Below are positions 16,376 through 55,265 of a stretch of 64,000 nucleotides of DNA, one piece after another (positions within the stretch are counted from its first letter, which is position 1; every line of letters begins with the position of its first letter). This stretch comes from an uncultured Pseudomonadota bacterium (GTDB lineage: Bacteria; Pseudomonadota; Alphaproteobacteria; RF32; CAG-239), in NCBI GenBank assembly GCA_902761535.1, contig CACWKS010000008.1, positions 9,022 through 73,021 of the forward strand, read 5' to 3'. The position numbers and the translations under genes were made by a program. The notes under the pieces were generated by a model, which was not told the origin of the DNA, ran no database searches, and saw only the letters and a list, made by a program, of their open reading frames with translations.

Positions 16376-17860
16376 ATGGAGTTTGATGTGTTATCTCTTC
16401 TGATTTTTTTTATCGGCTATATGATTTTTGCCACAGCTAATTGGATTATTCACAAATTCGGTCCGGTTACTTATGAGCAAATAATGTTCCACCTCAATAT
16501 GCCTTTCGATTCGGAAACACGGCTTATGTTAAGCTATTTCAAACATACCGTTATGACTGCAGCCATCATTATTTTGCTTTTGTTGTTGCTGTTTTGCCGC
16601 AAATACAAATTTCATGTTAAACTCATCGATCAGGTCAGGGATTTTATTTATGCCAAAAAACTTTGGTTCAGCTTAGCTTGGTTAGCTTTTTGTTGCCTGT
16701 GGTTTTTCGTTCGTATGAATGTTTGGACTATGCTGAATTATCATAATATCAAACGTGAAACTTCCAATTTTTACGAGCAAAATTATGTTATACCCCAGCA
16801 TACCAAAATCACTTTTCCCAAACATAAACGCAATTTGGTGCTGATATTTATGGAGAGTATGGAGGCGACTTATGCCAAAATTCCGCACCATAATTATTTT
16901 GATGCCGATTTAATTCCCGAATTACATCATCTGGCCAAGCAAAATATCAATTTCAGCGATAATGAATATATCGGCGGTTCTTCGTCTATCGATGGAACTC
17001 AATGGACTCAGGGCGGATTGGTTGCTCAAACTTGCGGAATCCCTATCCAATTACCGATTAATGACGCTAATTTCTTCCATCCTAAAAACAGCTTTTATCC
17101 AAATGCCTGGTGTTTATACGATATTTTGCGGCAAAAAGGTTATGAAGAAAGTTTTCTGCTCGGCTCTAATGGTGAGTTTGCCGGCATGAACCGTTTTCTT
17201 GAGACTCACGGCAAACAAAAAATGTTGGATATTTTATATTATGCCAAACGTGACGGCCTCAAAGTTTCTTTTGAAAAAACTACCAAGTTGCCCGATAAAC
17301 AACTCTTTGTTTACGCCAAAGAGGAGCTGTCGCAATTAGCCTCACAAAATAAACCTTTTGTCTTCACCTTGATGACTTTGGATACTCATTACGGCACCGG
17401 AAGATTTGCCGATGATATTTGCGATCGCAAATATGGTGAACACAATAATATCAAAAATGTGGTTTCCTGCTCCAGTTATCAAATCGGTGAATTTGTCAAT
17501 TGGCTTAAACAACAACCGTATTATCGTGATACTGTTATTGTAATGTTGGGTGATCACCTGACTATGAACGAATTTTTTACTGACGATATGAATCGCAAAG
17601 TCTTAAACATATTTATCAATTCCTCAGTCGGTGCCGATCGCACCAAAAATCGCAACTTTACGCCTTTTGATATCTATCCGACCATTGTTGAAAGTTTAGG
17701 TGCCAAAATTTCCGGCCATCGTTTGGGTTTAGGAACATCTCTGTTTTCCGATATCCCGACCTTAACCGAAAGCAAAATGAGTATCGAAGAAATGGACACG
17801 GAAGTCCGTAAATCATCTAAATTGTACGATTGGTTGCTCTACGGTAAAAATGTCAAATAG
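16376..17860 (+). CDS. Membrane-anchored sulfatase/LTA-synthase-family transferase (phosphoglycerol-transferase-like)
   Basis: N-terminal TM bundle followed by alkaline-phosphatase-superfamily blocks (FMESMEATY, TLDTHYG, MLGDHL). Confidence 0.7.
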   Translation: MEFDVLSLLIFFIGYMIFATANWIIHKFGPVTYEQIMFHLNMPFDSETRLMLSYFKHTVMTAAIIILLLLLLFCRKYKFHVKLIDQVRDFIYAKKLWFSLAWLAFCCLWFFVRMNVWTMLNYHNIKRETSNFYEQNYVIPQHTKITFPKHKRNLVLIFMESMEATYAKIPHHNYFDADLIPELHHLAKQNINFSDNEYIGGSSSIDGTQWTQGGLVAQTCGIPIQLPINDANFFHPKNSFYPNAWCLYDILRQKGYEESFLLGSNGEFAGMNRFLETHGKQKMLDILYYAKRDGLKVSFEKTTKLPDKQLFVYAKEELSQLASQNKPFVFTLMTLDTHYGTGRFADDICDRKYGEHNNIKNVVSCSSYQIGEFVNWLKQQPYYRDTVIVMLGDHLTMNEFFTDDMNRKVLNIFINSSVGADRTKNRNFTPFDIYPTIVESLGAKISGHRLGLGTSLFSDIPTLTESKMSIEEMDTEVRKSSKLYDWLLYGKNVK

Positions 17861-17861
17861 C

Positions 17862-18284
17862 CTACCACGGCTCGGCATACAGCAAAAACTTATCTCTGCC
17901 GTTGATAGTTTTTATCTCATGATTGAGCAAAATTGTCGGCAATTCATATTGGCAAAAAGTACTTAAAGGATGGGCATTTTTAATAAAAGCCGTAATATTT
18001 CCGCTCGCCCCCAGCACCATTCGCGTTGAAGCAATTCCCCACACCTGATAAGCTTCATCTCGCGATAATCCGCTGTTAGGCGAAAACAAATCAAGCTCCA
18101 ACAAAGCCTTTCCGCAAGGAGTATCTTCAATAGTCATGGCGTTTTTATGATTTTTTACATAATCCAAAGCCAAGTGTTTGTTAGTATCATCATTTTGAAA
18201 ACTTACACTGAACAAAACCAATGAATCAGGTTTGGTCGTCACATCATAAGTTCTGGCGATTTCCAGAATTTTTTGATCTACCAT
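17862..18284 (-). CDS. Mini ADP-ribosyl cyclase / CD38-like (putative NAD+ glycohydrolase/cyclase) protein
   Basis: Ordered blocks LVLFSVS, MTIEDTPCG, QVWGIAS and STFCQYELPTIL match the remembered FWSG, TLEDTL(L/P)G, FW(K/G)xxS and S(T/F)FGxxE(L/V)xNL blocks of CD38 and Aplysia cyclase. ATG at 18284 is preferred over the track's TTG at 18302. Confidence 0.45.
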   Translation of the reverse strand: MVDQKILEIARTYDVTTKPDSLVLFSVSFQNDDTNKHLALDYVKNHKNAMTIEDTPCGKALLELDLFSPNSGLSRDEAYQVWGIASTRMVLGASGNITAFIKNAHPLSTFCQYELPTILLNHEIKTINGRDKFLLYAEPW

Positions 18285-18430
18285 GGCACACCGTGAATAC
18301 AACGTTCCGGTGTTTTTTCACAGTCCGCACGACCTTGTTCGTATTGTGCATGTCTTTCCGGCGAAAACTCACCTGCTTTAACACATGCCGTTAAAATAAA
18401 CACAAGTATAAAAGCCAAAATTTTTTTCAA
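18278..18430 (-). CDS. Unannotated 50-aa lipoprotein (TTG start)
   Basis: Hand-translated: (M)KKILAFILVFILTAC VKAGEFSPERHAQYEQGRADCEKTPERCIHGVPW. GAGGA lies 7 nt upstream of the TTG. Clear lipobox. Its stop overlaps the next gene's start (ATGGTAG). Below the track's 60-aa cut-off. Confidence 0.45.
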   Translation of the reverse strand: MKKILAFILVFILTACVKAGEFSPERHAQYEQGRADCEKTPERCIHGVPW

Positions 18431-18888: not shown

Positions 18889-20268
18889 TTAACAGTTAGC
18901 TATATTAACCGCCAAACCGCCTAGAGAAGTCTCTTTATAACGATTACTCATATCTTTGCCGGTCGCATACATGGTTTTTATGGCACTGTCAAGTGATACA
19001 AAATGTTCGCCTTTGCCTTGCAACGCTAATCTGGCGGAATTTACGGCTTTGACTGCTCCCATCGCATTTCGTTCAATACAAGGAATTTGCACCAATCCGC
19101 ATACCGGATCGCAAGTCAATCCCAGATTGTGTTCTATGGCAATCTCGGCTGCTTGTTCAATCTGATTATTGTTTCCCCCCATAGCCGCTGCTAAGCCGGC
19201 CGCTGCCATCGAACAAGCCACTCCGACTTCTCCCTGACAACCGACCTCGGCTCCGGATATTGAAGCATTAGTCCGATAAAGCGAACAAATGGCTGCTGCT
19301 GTGGTAAAAAATTTCACAATTCCGTCATCGACCGATAAAGGCGACATATGAGAAGCGAATTTTTGAAAATAACGTAATACTGCCGGAATAATTCCTGATG
19401 ATCCCATTGTCGGAGCCGTAACCACCCGACTTCCGGAAGCATTTTCCTCAGCCACGGCAAATCCCCATAAGTTCAACCAATCAATTACTTCCAAACCATC
19501 CTGTTGATTAGTCAAAAATTTTTCTCTCATTCTGCGATAAATTTCCGCAGCTCTTCTTTTTACGTGAAGTCCGCCGGGGAGTTCTCCTGAGCCATGCATT
19601 CCTTTATCTATTGCCGCATCCATAATCCCGTGAATTTTTTTCAAATAATCAAAAACTTGTTTTTCCGGCGCCAGACATACTTCATTTTGCAAAACCACAT
19701 CAGATATGGAAAGATTATATTTATTGCAAATATTCTGCAGTTCTTTACAACTGTCAAATTGATGAGGCACATTATATATTTGGTGAACAATTTCTTGTCC
19801 CATTTCGTCTTTGCGTAGAACTGTACCGCCGCCGATGGAAAAATATTCCTCCGATAAAATTTTATTTTTTCCGGAAAAAGCCGTAAAACGCATGCCGTTA
19901 GAATGTTCCGGTAAAAATATTTTCTTATGTAGTTTCATATCATTGTCAACATCAAACGGAATAGGCTTCATTTGCGCCAAATGCAACATTTTATCCCGTT
20001 CAAGATAGAAATAATAGGGCTGGCTGGTGTCTATATCCTCAGCATTAAATCCCATTAATCCGTAAGTAATTGCCTTTAGAGTTCCGTGTCCTACACCGGT
20101 TAGAGCAAGCGAACCGTATAAATCAACTTTCAGCGAAGTGACTTTATCAATCTCACCGTATTTTTTAATATTATCAACAAATCGCTTGGCTGCAACCATC
20201 GGTCCGACCGTATGCGAGCTTGACGGACCGATACCTATGGCAAAAATTTCTGATAAACGATAATACAT
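18889..20268 (-). CDS. sdaA: L-serine dehydratase (single-chain, Fe-S type)
   Basis: IGPSSSHTVGPM N-terminus and C-terminal CDPVCGLVQIPCIERNA block. Confidence 0.9.
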   Translation of the reverse strand: MYYRLSEIFAIGIGPSSSHTVGPMVAAKRFVDNIKKYGEIDKVTSLKVDLYGSLALTGVGHGTLKAITYGLMGFNAEDIDTSQPYYFYLERDKMLHLAQMKPIPFDVDNDMKLHKKIFLPEHSNGMRFTAFSGKNKILSEEYFSIGGGTVLRKDEMGQEIVHQIYNVPHQFDSCKELQNICNKYNLSISDVVLQNEVCLAPEKQVFDYLKKIHGIMDAAIDKGMHGSGELPGGLHVKRRAAEIYRRMREKFLTNQQDGLEVIDWLNLWGFAVAEENASGSRVVTAPTMGSSGIIPAVLRYFQKFASHMSPLSVDDGIVKFFTTAAAICSLYRTNASISGAEVGCQGEVGVACSMAAAGLAAAMGGNNNQIEQAAEIAIEHNLGLTCDPVCGLVQIPCIERNAMGAVKAVNSARLALQGKGEHFVSLDSAIKTMYATGKDMSNRYKETSLGGLAVNIANC

Positions 20269-21983
20269 TATAAATATGTCCTGATATCTTTATATGGTTT
20301 AACCCCGATTTTTATCAAAGTATCGGCTATATATTCATGCAATTTACCCCATTCGGTGTTTTCTTCAATAAATTGCTGAGCTTTTTTAGGTGATTTTGAT
20401 AATTGCACGGCAATCGTTTCTTCCAAAATTTTATTCATAACTTTGGGCATTATGGCAAAATCAATACTTATTTTGTTATCAGCGTTGAAAGTAATTGCGC
20501 CATGTCGGAGCAAATAATTGAAATGAATCAAATCTCCCATACGGTGAGGTTGTATTTGTTGGGGTTTTGCTTTCAGCAACAGCCTCATTATCCATGTAAC
20601 ATAAACTTTATGTAAAGTTGTTTCATCAATAACTCCGGATTTAACATATTGCGGCATCATAGCTATTGAAACAACATCAGCCTTGTTTTCTTCAATAATA
20701 TGCTTGTAAGCACCTAAAGAATCTTTATAAGAACTGTCCGGCCCTAAAGAATGTCCGTTTTCATGTCCTATCACAAAAATATGTTCGACCTCATCATCAT
20801 AGTATTGATGAAAGTCTTTTTCTAATAAAGCATTTAGCATCTCCGTTCTCAGAGCTTTATCACCCGACATTCTGACTTGACGGTGATACACATTACGCCG
20901 TCCTCCACCGGTTCTGACCGATAATTTGTCATCATTGGGCAAATTCTGTGCGGTGGTAATTCCGCCTCGACATTGTGCATAATCTCCCTGCAGAGTTGCC
21001 AAATCTACGTCAACCATAGTTTGTTTGACATCATCACCTGTATCAATTTTTTGCTCATATTGGTCTGCCAAGGGCATTAGTTTGGCTAACTTTGACATTT
21101 GTGATTTAAACTTCAAAATTAAATCCGTACCTTTTTTATTTACTATACCGACACGAGCACCCAGCATATCTTTTGCAATCGGAAAAATATTATTTTCCTC
21201 CAATAGTGCGACTAATTCTTCATTTTCAAAAACACTCGGGGTTACCTCATCATCATAATTTTCTCTGGATAATGTGAATTCTAAAGGTGTATCCTGCATA
21301 ATCGCCCAGTGTTTGTCGGCTAACATATCCATATCTTCATTGTTTTGCAACAAAGCTTGAGCTTGCCATCCCAAATAATCATTAAATTCTTCATTAGTCG
21401 AGTAATGAGCCGCAACCTCCAATTCATTAGCTATGTCGGAAAAAGCTTGGGCAAAAAATTGTGTATAATCGATAGCAATCAAATCCTCACCCTTTCGGCG
21501 CACCATAGAGCGAGCAGACAATATTTTTCGTACCTCATCAATATTTCCGTTTTTTAACATCCGATATAAAATTTTATGAAATTCTTCAATCGATAAATCG
21601 GTAGGATAAAAATTACGTCCTTTATAAATATGCACATTTTCAAATATTTCTATCGGGTCTTTATCTATGCCGTTGATTCCGGCAACTCCGTTAAAAGAAT
21701 TAAAAAGTTTTAAGGCTTTAGCCGCATGAGTATTGTTTTTTGCTGCATCTTCTAATCCTTTTTTCAATAGAAGATTAAGCGGGTGATCCTGTTCAAGTGC
21801 TACATTGTTTAGAATACGCGCAGCTGCTATCAAATGAGACAAAGCTTTTTTATCCCCTTCTGCCAATTGTTGATAACCTTCAAAATTCCTGTCAATCATT
21901 TCAATAGGCATCATTTGCTGATTGATTATCTTATCTAAATCTGCTTCGCTGATTGCTATTTCAAAATTATTAATCTTCGTCAT
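20268..21983 (-). CDS. Zinc metallopeptidase, DPP III (M49)-like
   Basis: HENGH (HExxH) followed ~30 aa later by EENKAD, resembling the M49 second motif EExxAE/D. TAATG overlap with sdaA. Confidence 0.5.
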   Translation of the reverse strand: MTKINNFEIAISEADLDKIINQQMMPIEMIDRNFEGYQQLAEGDKKALSHLIAAARILNNVALEQDHPLNLLLKKGLEDAAKNNTHAAKALKLFNSFNGVAGINGIDKDPIEIFENVHIYKGRNFYPTDLSIEEFHKILYRMLKNGNIDEVRKILSARSMVRRKGEDLIAIDYTQFFAQAFSDIANELEVAAHYSTNEEFNDYLGWQAQALLQNNEDMDMLADKHWAIMQDTPLEFTLSRENYDDEVTPSVFENEELVALLEENNIFPIAKDMLGARVGIVNKKGTDLILKFKSQMSKLAKLMPLADQYEQKIDTGDDVKQTMVDVDLATLQGDYAQCRGGITTAQNLPNDDKLSVRTGGGRRNVYHRQVRMSGDKALRTEMLNALLEKDFHQYYDDEVEHIFVIGHENGHSLGPDSSYKDSLGAYKHIIEENKADVVSIAMMPQYVKSGVIDETTLHKVYVTWIMRLLLKAKPQQIQPHRMGDLIHFNYLLRHGAITFNADNKISIDFAIMPKVMNKILEETIAVQLSKSPKKAQQFIEENTEWGKLHEYIADTLIKIGVKPYKDIRTYL

Positions 21984-54170: not shown

Positions 54171-55265
54171 ATGTCATCATTACAAACTTTTCGAGTTTTA
54201 GGTATTTCCAGTGGTTCGGCACTTGACGGAGTTGATGCTTCGGTTATTGTTACCGATGGTGTTGATGTATTTGATATTTGCCGCAATTATGAGTTTCCTT
54301 TTGATGAGGAGTTACGTAATAATCTTATAAAATTACATAAAAATTATCCGAATATCGATGAAAATGAAAAAATCAATGTGGAGGCAAAATATACCGATTT
54401 TTGCATTGACGCGGTTAAAGAAATATTGGAGGATGATAAAGATATAAATTTGATCGGATTTGGCGGACATATCATTTGTCACAAACCTCAGGAACATATT
54501 TTGTGTCAAATCGGTGATAACGAAAAAATAGCTCATCAATGCAATATTACAACTGTCGGCAGATTGCGTGATGCCGATATGCTATCCGGCGGTATGGGAG
54601 CACCTCTGGCAGCCATTTATCATGCCGCTTTGTCGCAAAAATTGCCTAAACCTCTGGTGTGGATTGATATCGGAGGCATAAGTGCTTTAACTTATATCGG
54701 TATTAATGGCGAGTTATTGGCTTTTGATACCGGTCCCGGTAATGCATTTATCAATGATTGGGTGGCCAAACATGCGGGAATCTATATGGATCATAACGGC
54801 AGTCTTGCCGCTTCCGGTCATATTAACAACGATGTATTATCGTCTTTAATGCGGCATAAATTTTTAAATATTCAGCCGCCCAAAGCAGTCGATAAAAGTG
54901 TTTTTGATGATAAAAGAGAACATCTTGAAGGGTTGAGCGTTGAAGATGGCGCAGCTACCGCTACGGCATTTGTTGCCGATTCCATAATCAAAGCAATCAA
55001 AGATTTCGTTCCGGAAAAACCCAACGAAGTAATTATTTGTGGCGGAGGGGCTAAAAATCCGACTTTGATGCGTTTTTTACGTCAGCGATCTGAGGATCTG
55101 GAAATATGCAATTCCGAACAACACGATTTTGCTTCACAAGCTATCGAAGCTCAAGCATTTGGTTATTTGGCGGTTCGCCGTTGTAACCAAATGCCGACTT
55201 CTTATCCGTTCACCACCGGTGCTGCAATGGAAGTTATTGGTGGCGAAGTATATGCTAATTCTTAG
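54171..55265 (+). CDS. anmK: Anhydro-N-acetylmuramic acid kinase
   Basis: GISSGSALDGVDA N-terminus, DTGPGN and CGGGAKNP blocks. Confidence 0.9.
   Translation: MSSLQTFRVLGISSGSALDGVDASVIVTDGVDVFDICRNYEFPFDEELRNNLIKLHKNYPNIDENEKINVEAKYTDFCIDAVKEILEDDKDINLIGFGGHIICHKPQEHILCQIGDNEKIAHQCNITTVGRLRDADMLSGGMGAPLAAIYHAALSQKLPKPLVWIDIGGISALTYIGINGELLAFDTGPGNAFINDWVAKHAGIYMDHNGSLAASGHINNDVLSSLMRHKFLNIQPPKAVDKSVFDDKREHLEGLSVEDGAATATAFVADSIIKAIKDFVPEKPNEVIICGGGAKNPTLMRFLRQRSEDLEICNSEQHDFASQAIEAQAFGYLAVRRCNQMPTSYPFTTGAAMEVIGGEVYANS

Follow-up and report, generated by a model that had tools for sequence, protein, structure and literature searches.

This study concerns one gene in a stretch of 64,000 nucleotides (hereafter the window) from an uncultured Pseudomonadota bacterium of the alphaproteobacterial lineage RF32; CAG-239 (GenBank assembly GCA_902761535.1, contig CACWKS010000008.1, positions 9,022 to 73,021 of the forward strand). 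The gene encodes a stand-alone protein of 140 amino acids that is homologous to the ADP-ribosyl cyclase (ARC) family, to which CD38 belongs, and in which the residues of the active site are retained. The protein is probably a cytoplasmic glycohydrolase or cyclase acting on nicotinamide adenine dinucleotide or its phosphate (NAD(P)+), comparable to the bacterial "Nac" enzymes, vertically inherited, encoded by the last gene of an operon, and not a polymorphic toxin.

Homology and predicted fold

Kinship with the ARC/CD38 family is detectable solely at the level of profiles or structures. A single-sequence phmmer search of the PDB returned chance matches to FKBP proteins only, scans of the 140-residue protein against NCBIfam, PADLOC and PHROGs gave no usable match, and the PADLOC defence-protein models gave 0 families at E<=10. 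Two profiles were run against the PDB, one made of 16 close sequences and a broader one of 70 sequences, including the window protein. With the close-family profile, the top of the list was occupied by porcine CD38 (E=0.005), Aplysia cyclase (0.02) and the bacterial toxins Tac1 (0.058) and Pantoea ARCtox (0.16). The broader profile matched Tac1 (9OUF, 1.7e-13), ARCtox (9RO8, 2.2e-13), porcine CD38 (5bnf, 9e-12), Aplysia cyclase (1lbe, 2.4e-11) and human CD38 (about 8e-7), and all 42 of its PDB matches at E<=0.01 belong to the ARC/CD38 family and to no other. An exhaustive search of 1.84 billion representative proteins yielded 857 relatives at E<=0.001, 235 of them at E<=1e-10. One relative, P0047, which matches the family profile at E=4e-19, scores 29 bits against PF02267, for which the cut-off is 25, and thus links the window protein transitively to that Pfam family.

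In the alignments to porcine CD38 and Aplysia cyclase, four sequence blocks pair one to one, as proposed in an earlier note that had been written from the sequence alone and that described a minimal protein of the CD38/ADP-ribosyl cyclase fold with catalytic Glu, Trp and Ser residues. The profile matches, the P0047 link and the structural comparison given below bear this description out, and the coordinates that the note gave for the gene were right (Table 1, with those of the blocks). The profile match is restricted to chain residues ~72-187 of the 256-residue CD38 ectodomain, from which it follows that the flanking parts of CD38 and the Cys-rich insert are absent; the note had likewise remarked that the N-terminal lobe and this insertion are missing.

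The open reading frame (ORF) can be read from a TTG codon (17862..18302, minus strand, 146 residues) or from an ATG at 18284 (140 residues, ending at 17862). The 15 close homologues are 139-166 residues long, 13 of them 139-144, and most begin with MV(K/D)Q; because of these lengths and N-termini, the ATG is taken as the real start. The length of about 140 residues stated in the earlier note agrees with this. Residues are numbered here from the ATG, so that the numbers used in the note are higher by 6. The ARC domain spans residues 1-140 and leaves no N-terminal extension; neither a second Pfam domain, nor a signal peptide, nor a recognisable secretion tag was found in the protein.

Structure prediction followed by a Foldseek search had been suggested in the note as a check. 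The AlphaFold2 model is confident (predicted local distance difference test, pLDDT, 92.3; predicted template modelling score, pTM, 0.85), and only ARC/CD38 structures appear among the 50 PDB matches listed by Foldseek, with probability 1.00 and 9RO8 as the best match (E=2e-5). According to this model, the window protein has the three-dimensional fold of the ARC family.

Many of the 857 relatives are C-terminal domains of long proteins with PAAR-like DUF4280 domains or filamentous-haemagglutinin repeats, and RHS repeats are found below threshold in some long ones. One distant relative (P0033, 462 residues) carries N-terminal ankyrin repeats and an ARC domain at residues 189-319, and may be a eukaryote-directed variant. 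Seven others (P0036, P0039, P0052, P0053, P0057, P0115 and P0160) form a sub-family of ~220-residue ARC proteins that share an N-terminal extension of ~55 residues with a recurring (L/F)NW(L/M)(T/P) motif; this extension does not correspond to a signal peptide or to any known trafficking domain.

Active site and its conservation

Conservation was counted over 47 aligned copies from alphaproteobacterial genomes. Residues S26, S28, T55, C57, G58, W82, A85, S86, R88, G95, N96, F110, E114 and N121 are invariant (47/47). The earlier note had paired F25/S26 with CD38 W125/S126, E53 with E146, W82/S86 with W189/S193, including the spacing of four residues between Trp and Ser, and E114 with the catalytic E226 (F31/S32, E59, W88/S92 and E120 in its numbering). 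All of these pairs recur in the hidden Markov model (HMM) alignments, and S26, W82, S86 and E114 are among the invariant residues. Position 53 is acidic in 45 of the 47 copies (Asp in 36, Glu in 9, Ala in 2), with Glu in the window protein, and position 25 is Tyr in 36 and Phe in 11, with Phe in the window protein. In the toxin-type relatives, the catalytic Glu is present in 48 of 49 sequences.

Mutagenesis of Tac1 showed that W490, E516, W540, S544 and E573 matter, that of the substitutions only the one at E573 abolishes all activity, and that Ala at position 516 leads to the release of cyclic ADP-ribose (cADPR) (PMC12356396). In the alignment to Tac1, E53 and E114 of the window protein stand opposite E516 and E573, W82 and S86 are identical to W540 and S544, F25 faces W490 and is thus aromatic yet not Trp, and R564 is substituted by H105. 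To judge from the aligned residues, the catalytic machinery is complete, and purifying selection acts on it.

Distribution, gene context and inheritance

A scan of 185,579 species-representative genomes returned 44 ARC loci. Nearly all of these genomes are metagenome-assembled and labelled Alphaproteobacteria, Rhodospirillales/Rhodospirillaceae, Azospirillaceae or "proteobacterium"; one 1.7-kb contig (L040) is labelled Eubacteriales. All named sources are gut or rumen environments: RUG rumen genomes; roe deer, goat, yak and water buffalo; and the UMGS, MGYG-HGUT and Hadza collections from the human gut.

Gene neighbourhoods were compared over 48 loci. The gene upstream of ARC is co-directional in all of them, with a gap mostly between -10 and +40 nt, and its identity varies (Table 1); the recurrent cluster reads rpoH-prmC-DUF4167-(phosphoesterase)-(HAD)-(clpB)-ARC. 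No downstream gene is conserved across the 48 loci, and the orientation there is mostly convergent. In the window, the downstream neighbour is a convergent gene of the sulfatase family that ends at 17860, 1 nt from the ARC stop (17858..17864). Since the two genes lie this close, an immunity gene could not fit in downstream of ARC, and the two transcripts must overlap or terminate in each other's coding sequence. The 28 window ORFs that were scanned belong to housekeeping families or to no family; no secretion-system, toxin or defence gene was found among them. Pfam and NCBIfam scans of the ARC neighbours revealed neither Imm74 nor any other immunity family. No compositional anomaly sets the ARC gene apart from the window (GC content of 0.39 versus 0.38).

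Pairwise identities between ARC proteins follow those between the products of neighbouring genes, with Spearman rho values of 0.84 for ClpB, 0.69 for PrmC and 0.68 for DUF4167; the pairs are non-independent, and the rho values, not p-values, are therefore relied on. Mean pairwise identity is 58% for ARC and 51% for PrmC, so that the two are about equally conserved. Divergence that tracks housekeeping neighbours in this way fits vertical inheritance and purifying selection and not a hypervariable, horizontally transferred toxin.

It is on these data that the first alternative has to be weighed, namely that the gene encodes a genuine toxin which depletes NAD(P)+, be it an orphan or "domesticated" Tox-ARC module or one half of a toxin-antitoxin-like pair whose unrecognised partner would be the 50- or 123-residue protein encoded just upstream (Table 1) or the product of a distant gene. 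We regard this as unlikely, even though the active site is as complete as in Tac1 and ARCtox, down to the Glu at position 53, and even though crippled Tac1 variants are still toxic in E. coli (PMC12356396). The family is moreover kin to hundreds of polymorphic-toxin C-terminal domains, and a tight three-gene unit with an overlapping stop and start resembles the coupling of a toxin to its partner. The two upstream proteins are, however, confined to the sub-clade of the window (6 of 48 loci), and as the shorter one bears a lipoprotein signal and the longer one is predicted to sit in the membrane, neither is placed to block a cytoplasmic active site. Across the family, no partner is kept upstream or downstream, the window protein has no trafficking domain and no Imm74 or PADLOC match was obtained, and sequence divergence as slow as that of PrmC would be unexpected for a hypervariable, horizontally transferred toxin. 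The lack of an N-terminal extension, of a conserved downstream gene and of an immunity family, together with the housekeeping surroundings, argues that the protein is not a polymorphic toxin. The earlier note had left the choice between a toxin, an effector and a signal generator: gene context speaks against the first two, and a signal generator or an enzyme of NAD turnover remains compatible with the data.

Relation to known ARC enzymes

Tox-ARC domains were predicted in polymorphic toxins by Zhang et al. (2012, PMC3482391), with Imm74 as the main immunity protein. Two such toxins have since been characterized: Tac1, a toxin of a type VII secretion system (T7SS) which rapidly hydrolyses NAD(P)+ through a cADPR intermediate and for which the structure of the core was solved (Colautti, Kim & Whitney, JBC 2025, PMC12356396), and ARCtox, a Pantoea toxin of a type VI secretion system (T6SS) solved by Martinkus et al. 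(2025, PMC12605009), who described its homologues as "exclusively" fused to delivery modules. Colautti et al. also reported stand-alone homologues, termed Nac, without conflict-system neighbours and without an immunity gene. Nac1 from Actinophytocola oryzae has a signal peptide and an Ala at the position of Tac1 E516; no immunity protein accompanied its purification from E. coli, and it gave cADPR and ADP-ribose in roughly equal amounts (PMC12356396). The view of the earlier note, that stand-alone bacterial ARC mini-proteins were not known, has therefore been overtaken by the literature of 2025, in which bacterial ARC cores of ~150 residues were crystallised and assayed and Nac enzymes were described (PMC12356396, PMC12605009). 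Our literature search found no paper on the alphaproteobacterial family to which the window protein belongs.

The window protein is, as the Nac designation implies, a Tac1 homologue without polymorphic-toxin components or an apparent immunity gene. With the Nac enzymes it shares a single-domain bacterial ARC core, the catalytic Glu, a location outside any polymorphic-toxin locus and the absence of an adjacent immunity gene. The comparison with Nac1, which rests on its published description and not on its sequence, also brings out differences: Nac1 comes from a different phylum, its Sec signal peptide, pointing to extracellular action, has no equivalent in the window protein, and the Ala linked to cADPR release is replaced by Glu in the window protein and mostly by Asp in its orthologues, few of which, P0007 and P0010 among them, have Ala.

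Tac1 (from the T7SS LXG toxin of Streptococcus parasanguinis, 9OUF) and ARCtox (from the T6SS PAAR toxin of Pantoea ananatis, 9RO8) have the same catalytic core (~130-150 residues), are the best profile (~2e-13) and Foldseek matches, and share the conserved Ser, Glu, Trp-x3-Ser and Glu-x-Pro motifs. Both are C-terminal domains of secreted multidomain toxins encoded beside immunity genes (Imm74 or others), whereas the window protein is free-standing, lies in a housekeeping context and diverges in step with its neighbours (rho 0.68-0.84). It is ~17-18% identical to them, has Phe in place of the first Trp, and possesses Cys57 and Ser28 as family-specific invariants. No trafficking domain of the LXG, PAAR, VgrG, Rhs or CdiA type was found in it, no immunity gene lies immediately downstream of its gene in the window, and the 28 window ORFs scanned contain no gene of a T6SS, T7SS, contact-dependent inhibition (CDI) or other conflict locus.

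Human CD38, CD157/BST-1 and Aplysia cyclase (PF02267) resemble the window protein in how their central part is folded, in the catalytic Glu (E226/E179), in a Trp (W189/W140) with Ser at +4, and in a TxE(D)T block. By contrast with these metazoan cyclases, it lacks ~70 N-terminal and ~70 C-terminal residues of the ectodomain, the Cys-rich insertion, the disulfides, the signal or anchor and glycosylation; it is predicted to be cytoplasmic and on its own falls below the Pfam threshold. The Thoeris TIR proteins, anti-phage NADases that produce cADPR isomers, offer a possible functional parallel, as the window protein could also consume NAD+ and make cyclic ADP-ribose species. They belong, however, to the unrelated TIR family, have effector partners and reside in defence islands, whereas the window protein has no PADLOC match and a housekeeping context.

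Proposed activity and points that weigh against it

By analogy with CD38 and Tac1, NAD+ or NADP+ would bind in the cleft, its rings held by W82 and the aromatic F25, with S26 and S86 in contact with the substrate. On departure of nicotinamide, the ribosyl oxocarbenium ion would be stabilised or captured by E114, and the intermediate could then be cyclised to cADPR or hydrolysed to ADP-ribose; an acidic residue at position 53, which is Glu in the window protein, would favour hydrolysis. In the genome of the window, ARC would be translated last from an operon that starts with a membrane protein and a small lipoprotein, and in relatives its commonest place is directly behind clpB in the rpoH-prmC-DUF4167-clpB cluster. 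A likely task for such an enzyme would be the controlled turnover of NAD(P)+ or the production of an NAD-derived nucleotide, possibly under stress.

Several observations sit less comfortably with an inherited, cytoplasmic NAD(P)+-consuming enzyme. At the level of detection, Pfam hmmscan of the bare 140-residue sequence gave no match to PF02267 even at E<=10 and a single chance match at E=0.26, an outcome which the earlier note had said would refute its proposal, although the profile and structure comparisons overturn that verdict, and the Foldseek superpositions are moderate, with TM-scores of 0.5-0.6 (query-normalised) and a root-mean-square deviation of 5-6 A. In the active site, the position of CD38 W125 and Tac1 W490 is Phe or Tyr across the family, and Tac1 W529 is without a counterpart in the window protein, since it faces Ser71 in a poorly aligned loop. 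Glu53 is toxin-like, where Nac1 has Ala, and the active site offers no reason why a cytoplasmic copy should be tolerated. With an active site resembling that of a lethal toxin and no evident immunity partner, tolerance is a puzzle, for which a low rate, regulation or a different preferred substrate are possible explanations; an immunity partner could also be encoded elsewhere in the genome or be among the uncharacterised upstream proteins. As to gene context, the clpB linkage is absent from the window locus, and the gene has shifted contexts within the clade. In one related locus (L005, 4884..6429), a 68%-identical ARC gene directly follows anmK in a BatD-VWA-TyrRS-AnmK neighbourhood shared with the window, in which anmK (54171..55265, plus strand) has no ARC gene behind it; the ARC gene has thus moved between operon ends.

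A second alternative concerns the substrate. The ARC fold might act not on NAD(P)+ but in the cleavage of nicotinamide mononucleotide (NMN), nicotinic acid mononucleotide (NaMN) or nicotinamide riboside, in pyridine base exchange, or in some other nucleotide N-glycosidase reaction, with a salvage or catabolic role alongside a nucleotidase. CD38 can in addition cleave NMN and carry out base exchange, and the Sdt1 enzyme of yeast removes the phosphate from NMN and NaMN. It is here that a HAD phosphatase resembling Sdt1 becomes relevant, whose best NCBIfam match is the pyrimidine 5'-nucleotidase TIGR01993, below cut-off. In one locus (L018, 5311..6420), a continuous ORF of 369 residues fuses this HAD to ARC, and a second cluster (P0165) is 87% identical to it; in L026, L035 and L042, the gene immediately upstream of ARC encodes a HAD that is related to this one yet distinct, its stop overlapping the ARC start or lying a few nucleotides from it, and a HAD occurs in the same cluster as ARC in L015, L024 and L025. 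What looks like a second fusion, in L036, extends across a stretch of N and might be artefactual. In addition, a YgjV-family inner-membrane protein (PF10688) follows ARC in four loci (L030, L039, L043 and L047; gap of -7 to +15 nt). YgjV proteins may be distant relatives of PnuC/SWEET-type transporters; a literature search on YgjV returned nothing informative. The aromatic residue at the W125 position, different from that of the NADases, could point the same way. Even so, such a substrate seems quite unlikely, given that the HAD link is limited to 8 of 44 genomes and missing from the window, and that the window protein keeps every residue with which CD38 and Tac1 are known to bind and cleave NAD+. 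The fused type of HAD normally sits after glgB-glgX-malQ without ARC, so that the fusion may be incidental; its use as strong "Rosetta-stone" evidence was rejected, as it occurs in one narrow lineage (L018 and P0165), and it is kept as a lead. The same status applies to the clpB/rpoH link to stress, the YgjV protein and the envelope pair, which are leads and not conclusions.

It is highly improbable that the protein is an effector which reaches a eukaryotic host or other cells without an N-terminal signal (by type IV secretion, outer-membrane vesicles or lysis) and would deplete NAD+ or produce cADPR outside the producer: the carriers are gut and rumen bacteria, a gene for a type IV secretion coupling protein lies ~2 kb from ARC in one locus (L001), the relative P0033 bears ankyrin repeats and gene order suggests co-expression with envelope proteins in the sub-clade of the window, but that coupling-protein gene is not conserved beside ARC, a scan of 28 window ORFs revealed no secretion-system gene, ARC is found most often with clpB and a housekeeping cluster, and the protein has no signal peptide or recognisable secretion tag. 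The reading retained is that of a cytoplasmic, Nac-like NAD(P)+ glycohydrolase or cyclase.

Neighbouring genes and features of the window

The trio of membrane protein, lipoprotein and ARC is kept in five other loci (L001 and L011-L014), with the 7-nt overlap preserved. The lipoprotein, of 49-50 residues in these loci, has two further conserved Cys residues and the motif GEF(S/T)P(E/K)RHAQ...DC(E/K)xTP(E/D)RC; against Pfam and NCBIfam it has no family, with one weak sub-threshold lipoprotein match. The 123-residue membrane protein likewise has no Pfam or NCBIfam family, and its gene lies between sdaA and the lipoprotein-ARC pair in all six loci. Both proteins were considered as general immunity partners and rejected, as they are envelope-targeted, belong to no family and occur in one sub-clade. 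In every locus of the sub-clade, the gene immediately upstream of sdaA has a stop that overlaps the sdaA start; it encodes a 571-residue protein (20268..21983 of the window, minus strand) that has an HExxH motif (HENGH) and no Pfam or NCBIfam match.

Families represented elsewhere in the window include Obg, SufS/B/D, SecD, Tag, serine dehydratase, Memo-AMMECR1, the Arg-, Tyr- and Thr-tRNA synthetases, a Mur ligase, AnmK and enolase. Neither a second ARC copy nor a HAD partner was found in the window, and a promoter and terminator scan around ARC performed no better than on shuffled sequences.

Table 1. Features of the ARC gene and its upstream neighbours. Coordinates refer to the window; counts refer to the 48 loci compared.
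Feature	Coordinates	Strand	Evidence or remark
Stand-alone protein with the ARC (CD38-like) fold, 140 aa	17862..18284	-	ORF, translation, homologues, profile matches, AlphaFold2 model, Foldseek
Block LVLFSVS, residues 22-28	18201..18221	-	F25/S26 align with CD38 W125/S126, Aplysia FWSG and Tac1 W490 (HMM alignments)
Block MTIEDTPCG, residues 50-58	18111..18137	-	E53 aligns with CD38 E146, Aplysia E98 and Tac1 E516
Block QVWGIAS, residues 80-86	18027..18047	-	W82/S86 align with CD38 W189/S193, Aplysia W140/S144 and Tac1 W540/S544
Block STFCQYELPTIL, residues 108-119	17928..17963	-	E114 is aligned to the catalytic Glu (CD38 E226, Aplysia E179, Tac1 E573)
Predicted lipoprotein, 50 aa, lipobox L-T-A-C	18278..18430	-	Cys-containing; 7-nt overlap of its stop with the start of ARC (CCATGGTAG)
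Predicted multi-pass membrane protein, 123 aa	18435..18806	-	Opens the compact three-gene unit; 4 nt separate it from the lipoprotein gene
Upstream gene ClpB			20/48 loci, L019 among the clpB-linked ones
Upstream gene DUF4167			10/48 loci
Upstream lipoprotein/membrane protein pair			6/48 loci
Upstream gene metallophosphoesterase			4/48 loci
Upstream HAD phosphatase			3/48 loci adjacent, 2/48 apparently fused
Other upstream genes			3/48 loci

Significance

Bacterial ARC proteins of this kind having been published in 2025, what is new here is the context: an inherited, predicted cytoplasmic ARC family of gut and rumen Alphaproteobacteria. Colautti et al. close by asking whether cADPR serves bacterial physiology, and the sole non-toxin example that they assayed is a secreted actinobacterial enzyme with an uninformative gene neighbourhood (PMC12356396). 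The family described here is a cleaner test case for such a role of ARC proteins, as it is signal-less, occurs in dozens of gut and rumen Alphaproteobacteria and evolves about as slowly as PrmC. Its definable operons, with the clpB/heat-shock cluster, the Sdt1-like phosphatase or the envelope pair, make a physiological role approachable by experiment. The cell also seems to tolerate, with no immunity protein, an active site that resembles a lethal NADase's, and an explanation of this would bear on how NAD-consuming enzymes are restrained and on the direction of evolution between housekeeping ARC proteins, toxins and CD38.

A more far-reaching idea, which we advance as a speculation of low probability, is that a vertically inherited cytoplasmic ARC, often co-transcribed with clpB, serves the physiology of its own cell, converting NAD(P)+ under stress into a messenger (cADPR, an isomer of it, or NAADP) or lowering NAD+. 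If true, this would be the first endogenous bacterial signalling of the cADPR type outside phage defence or interbacterial warfare, and the family could stand for the kind of "housekeeping" ancestor from which the polymorphic toxins as well as the CD38 family of eukaryotes were drawn.

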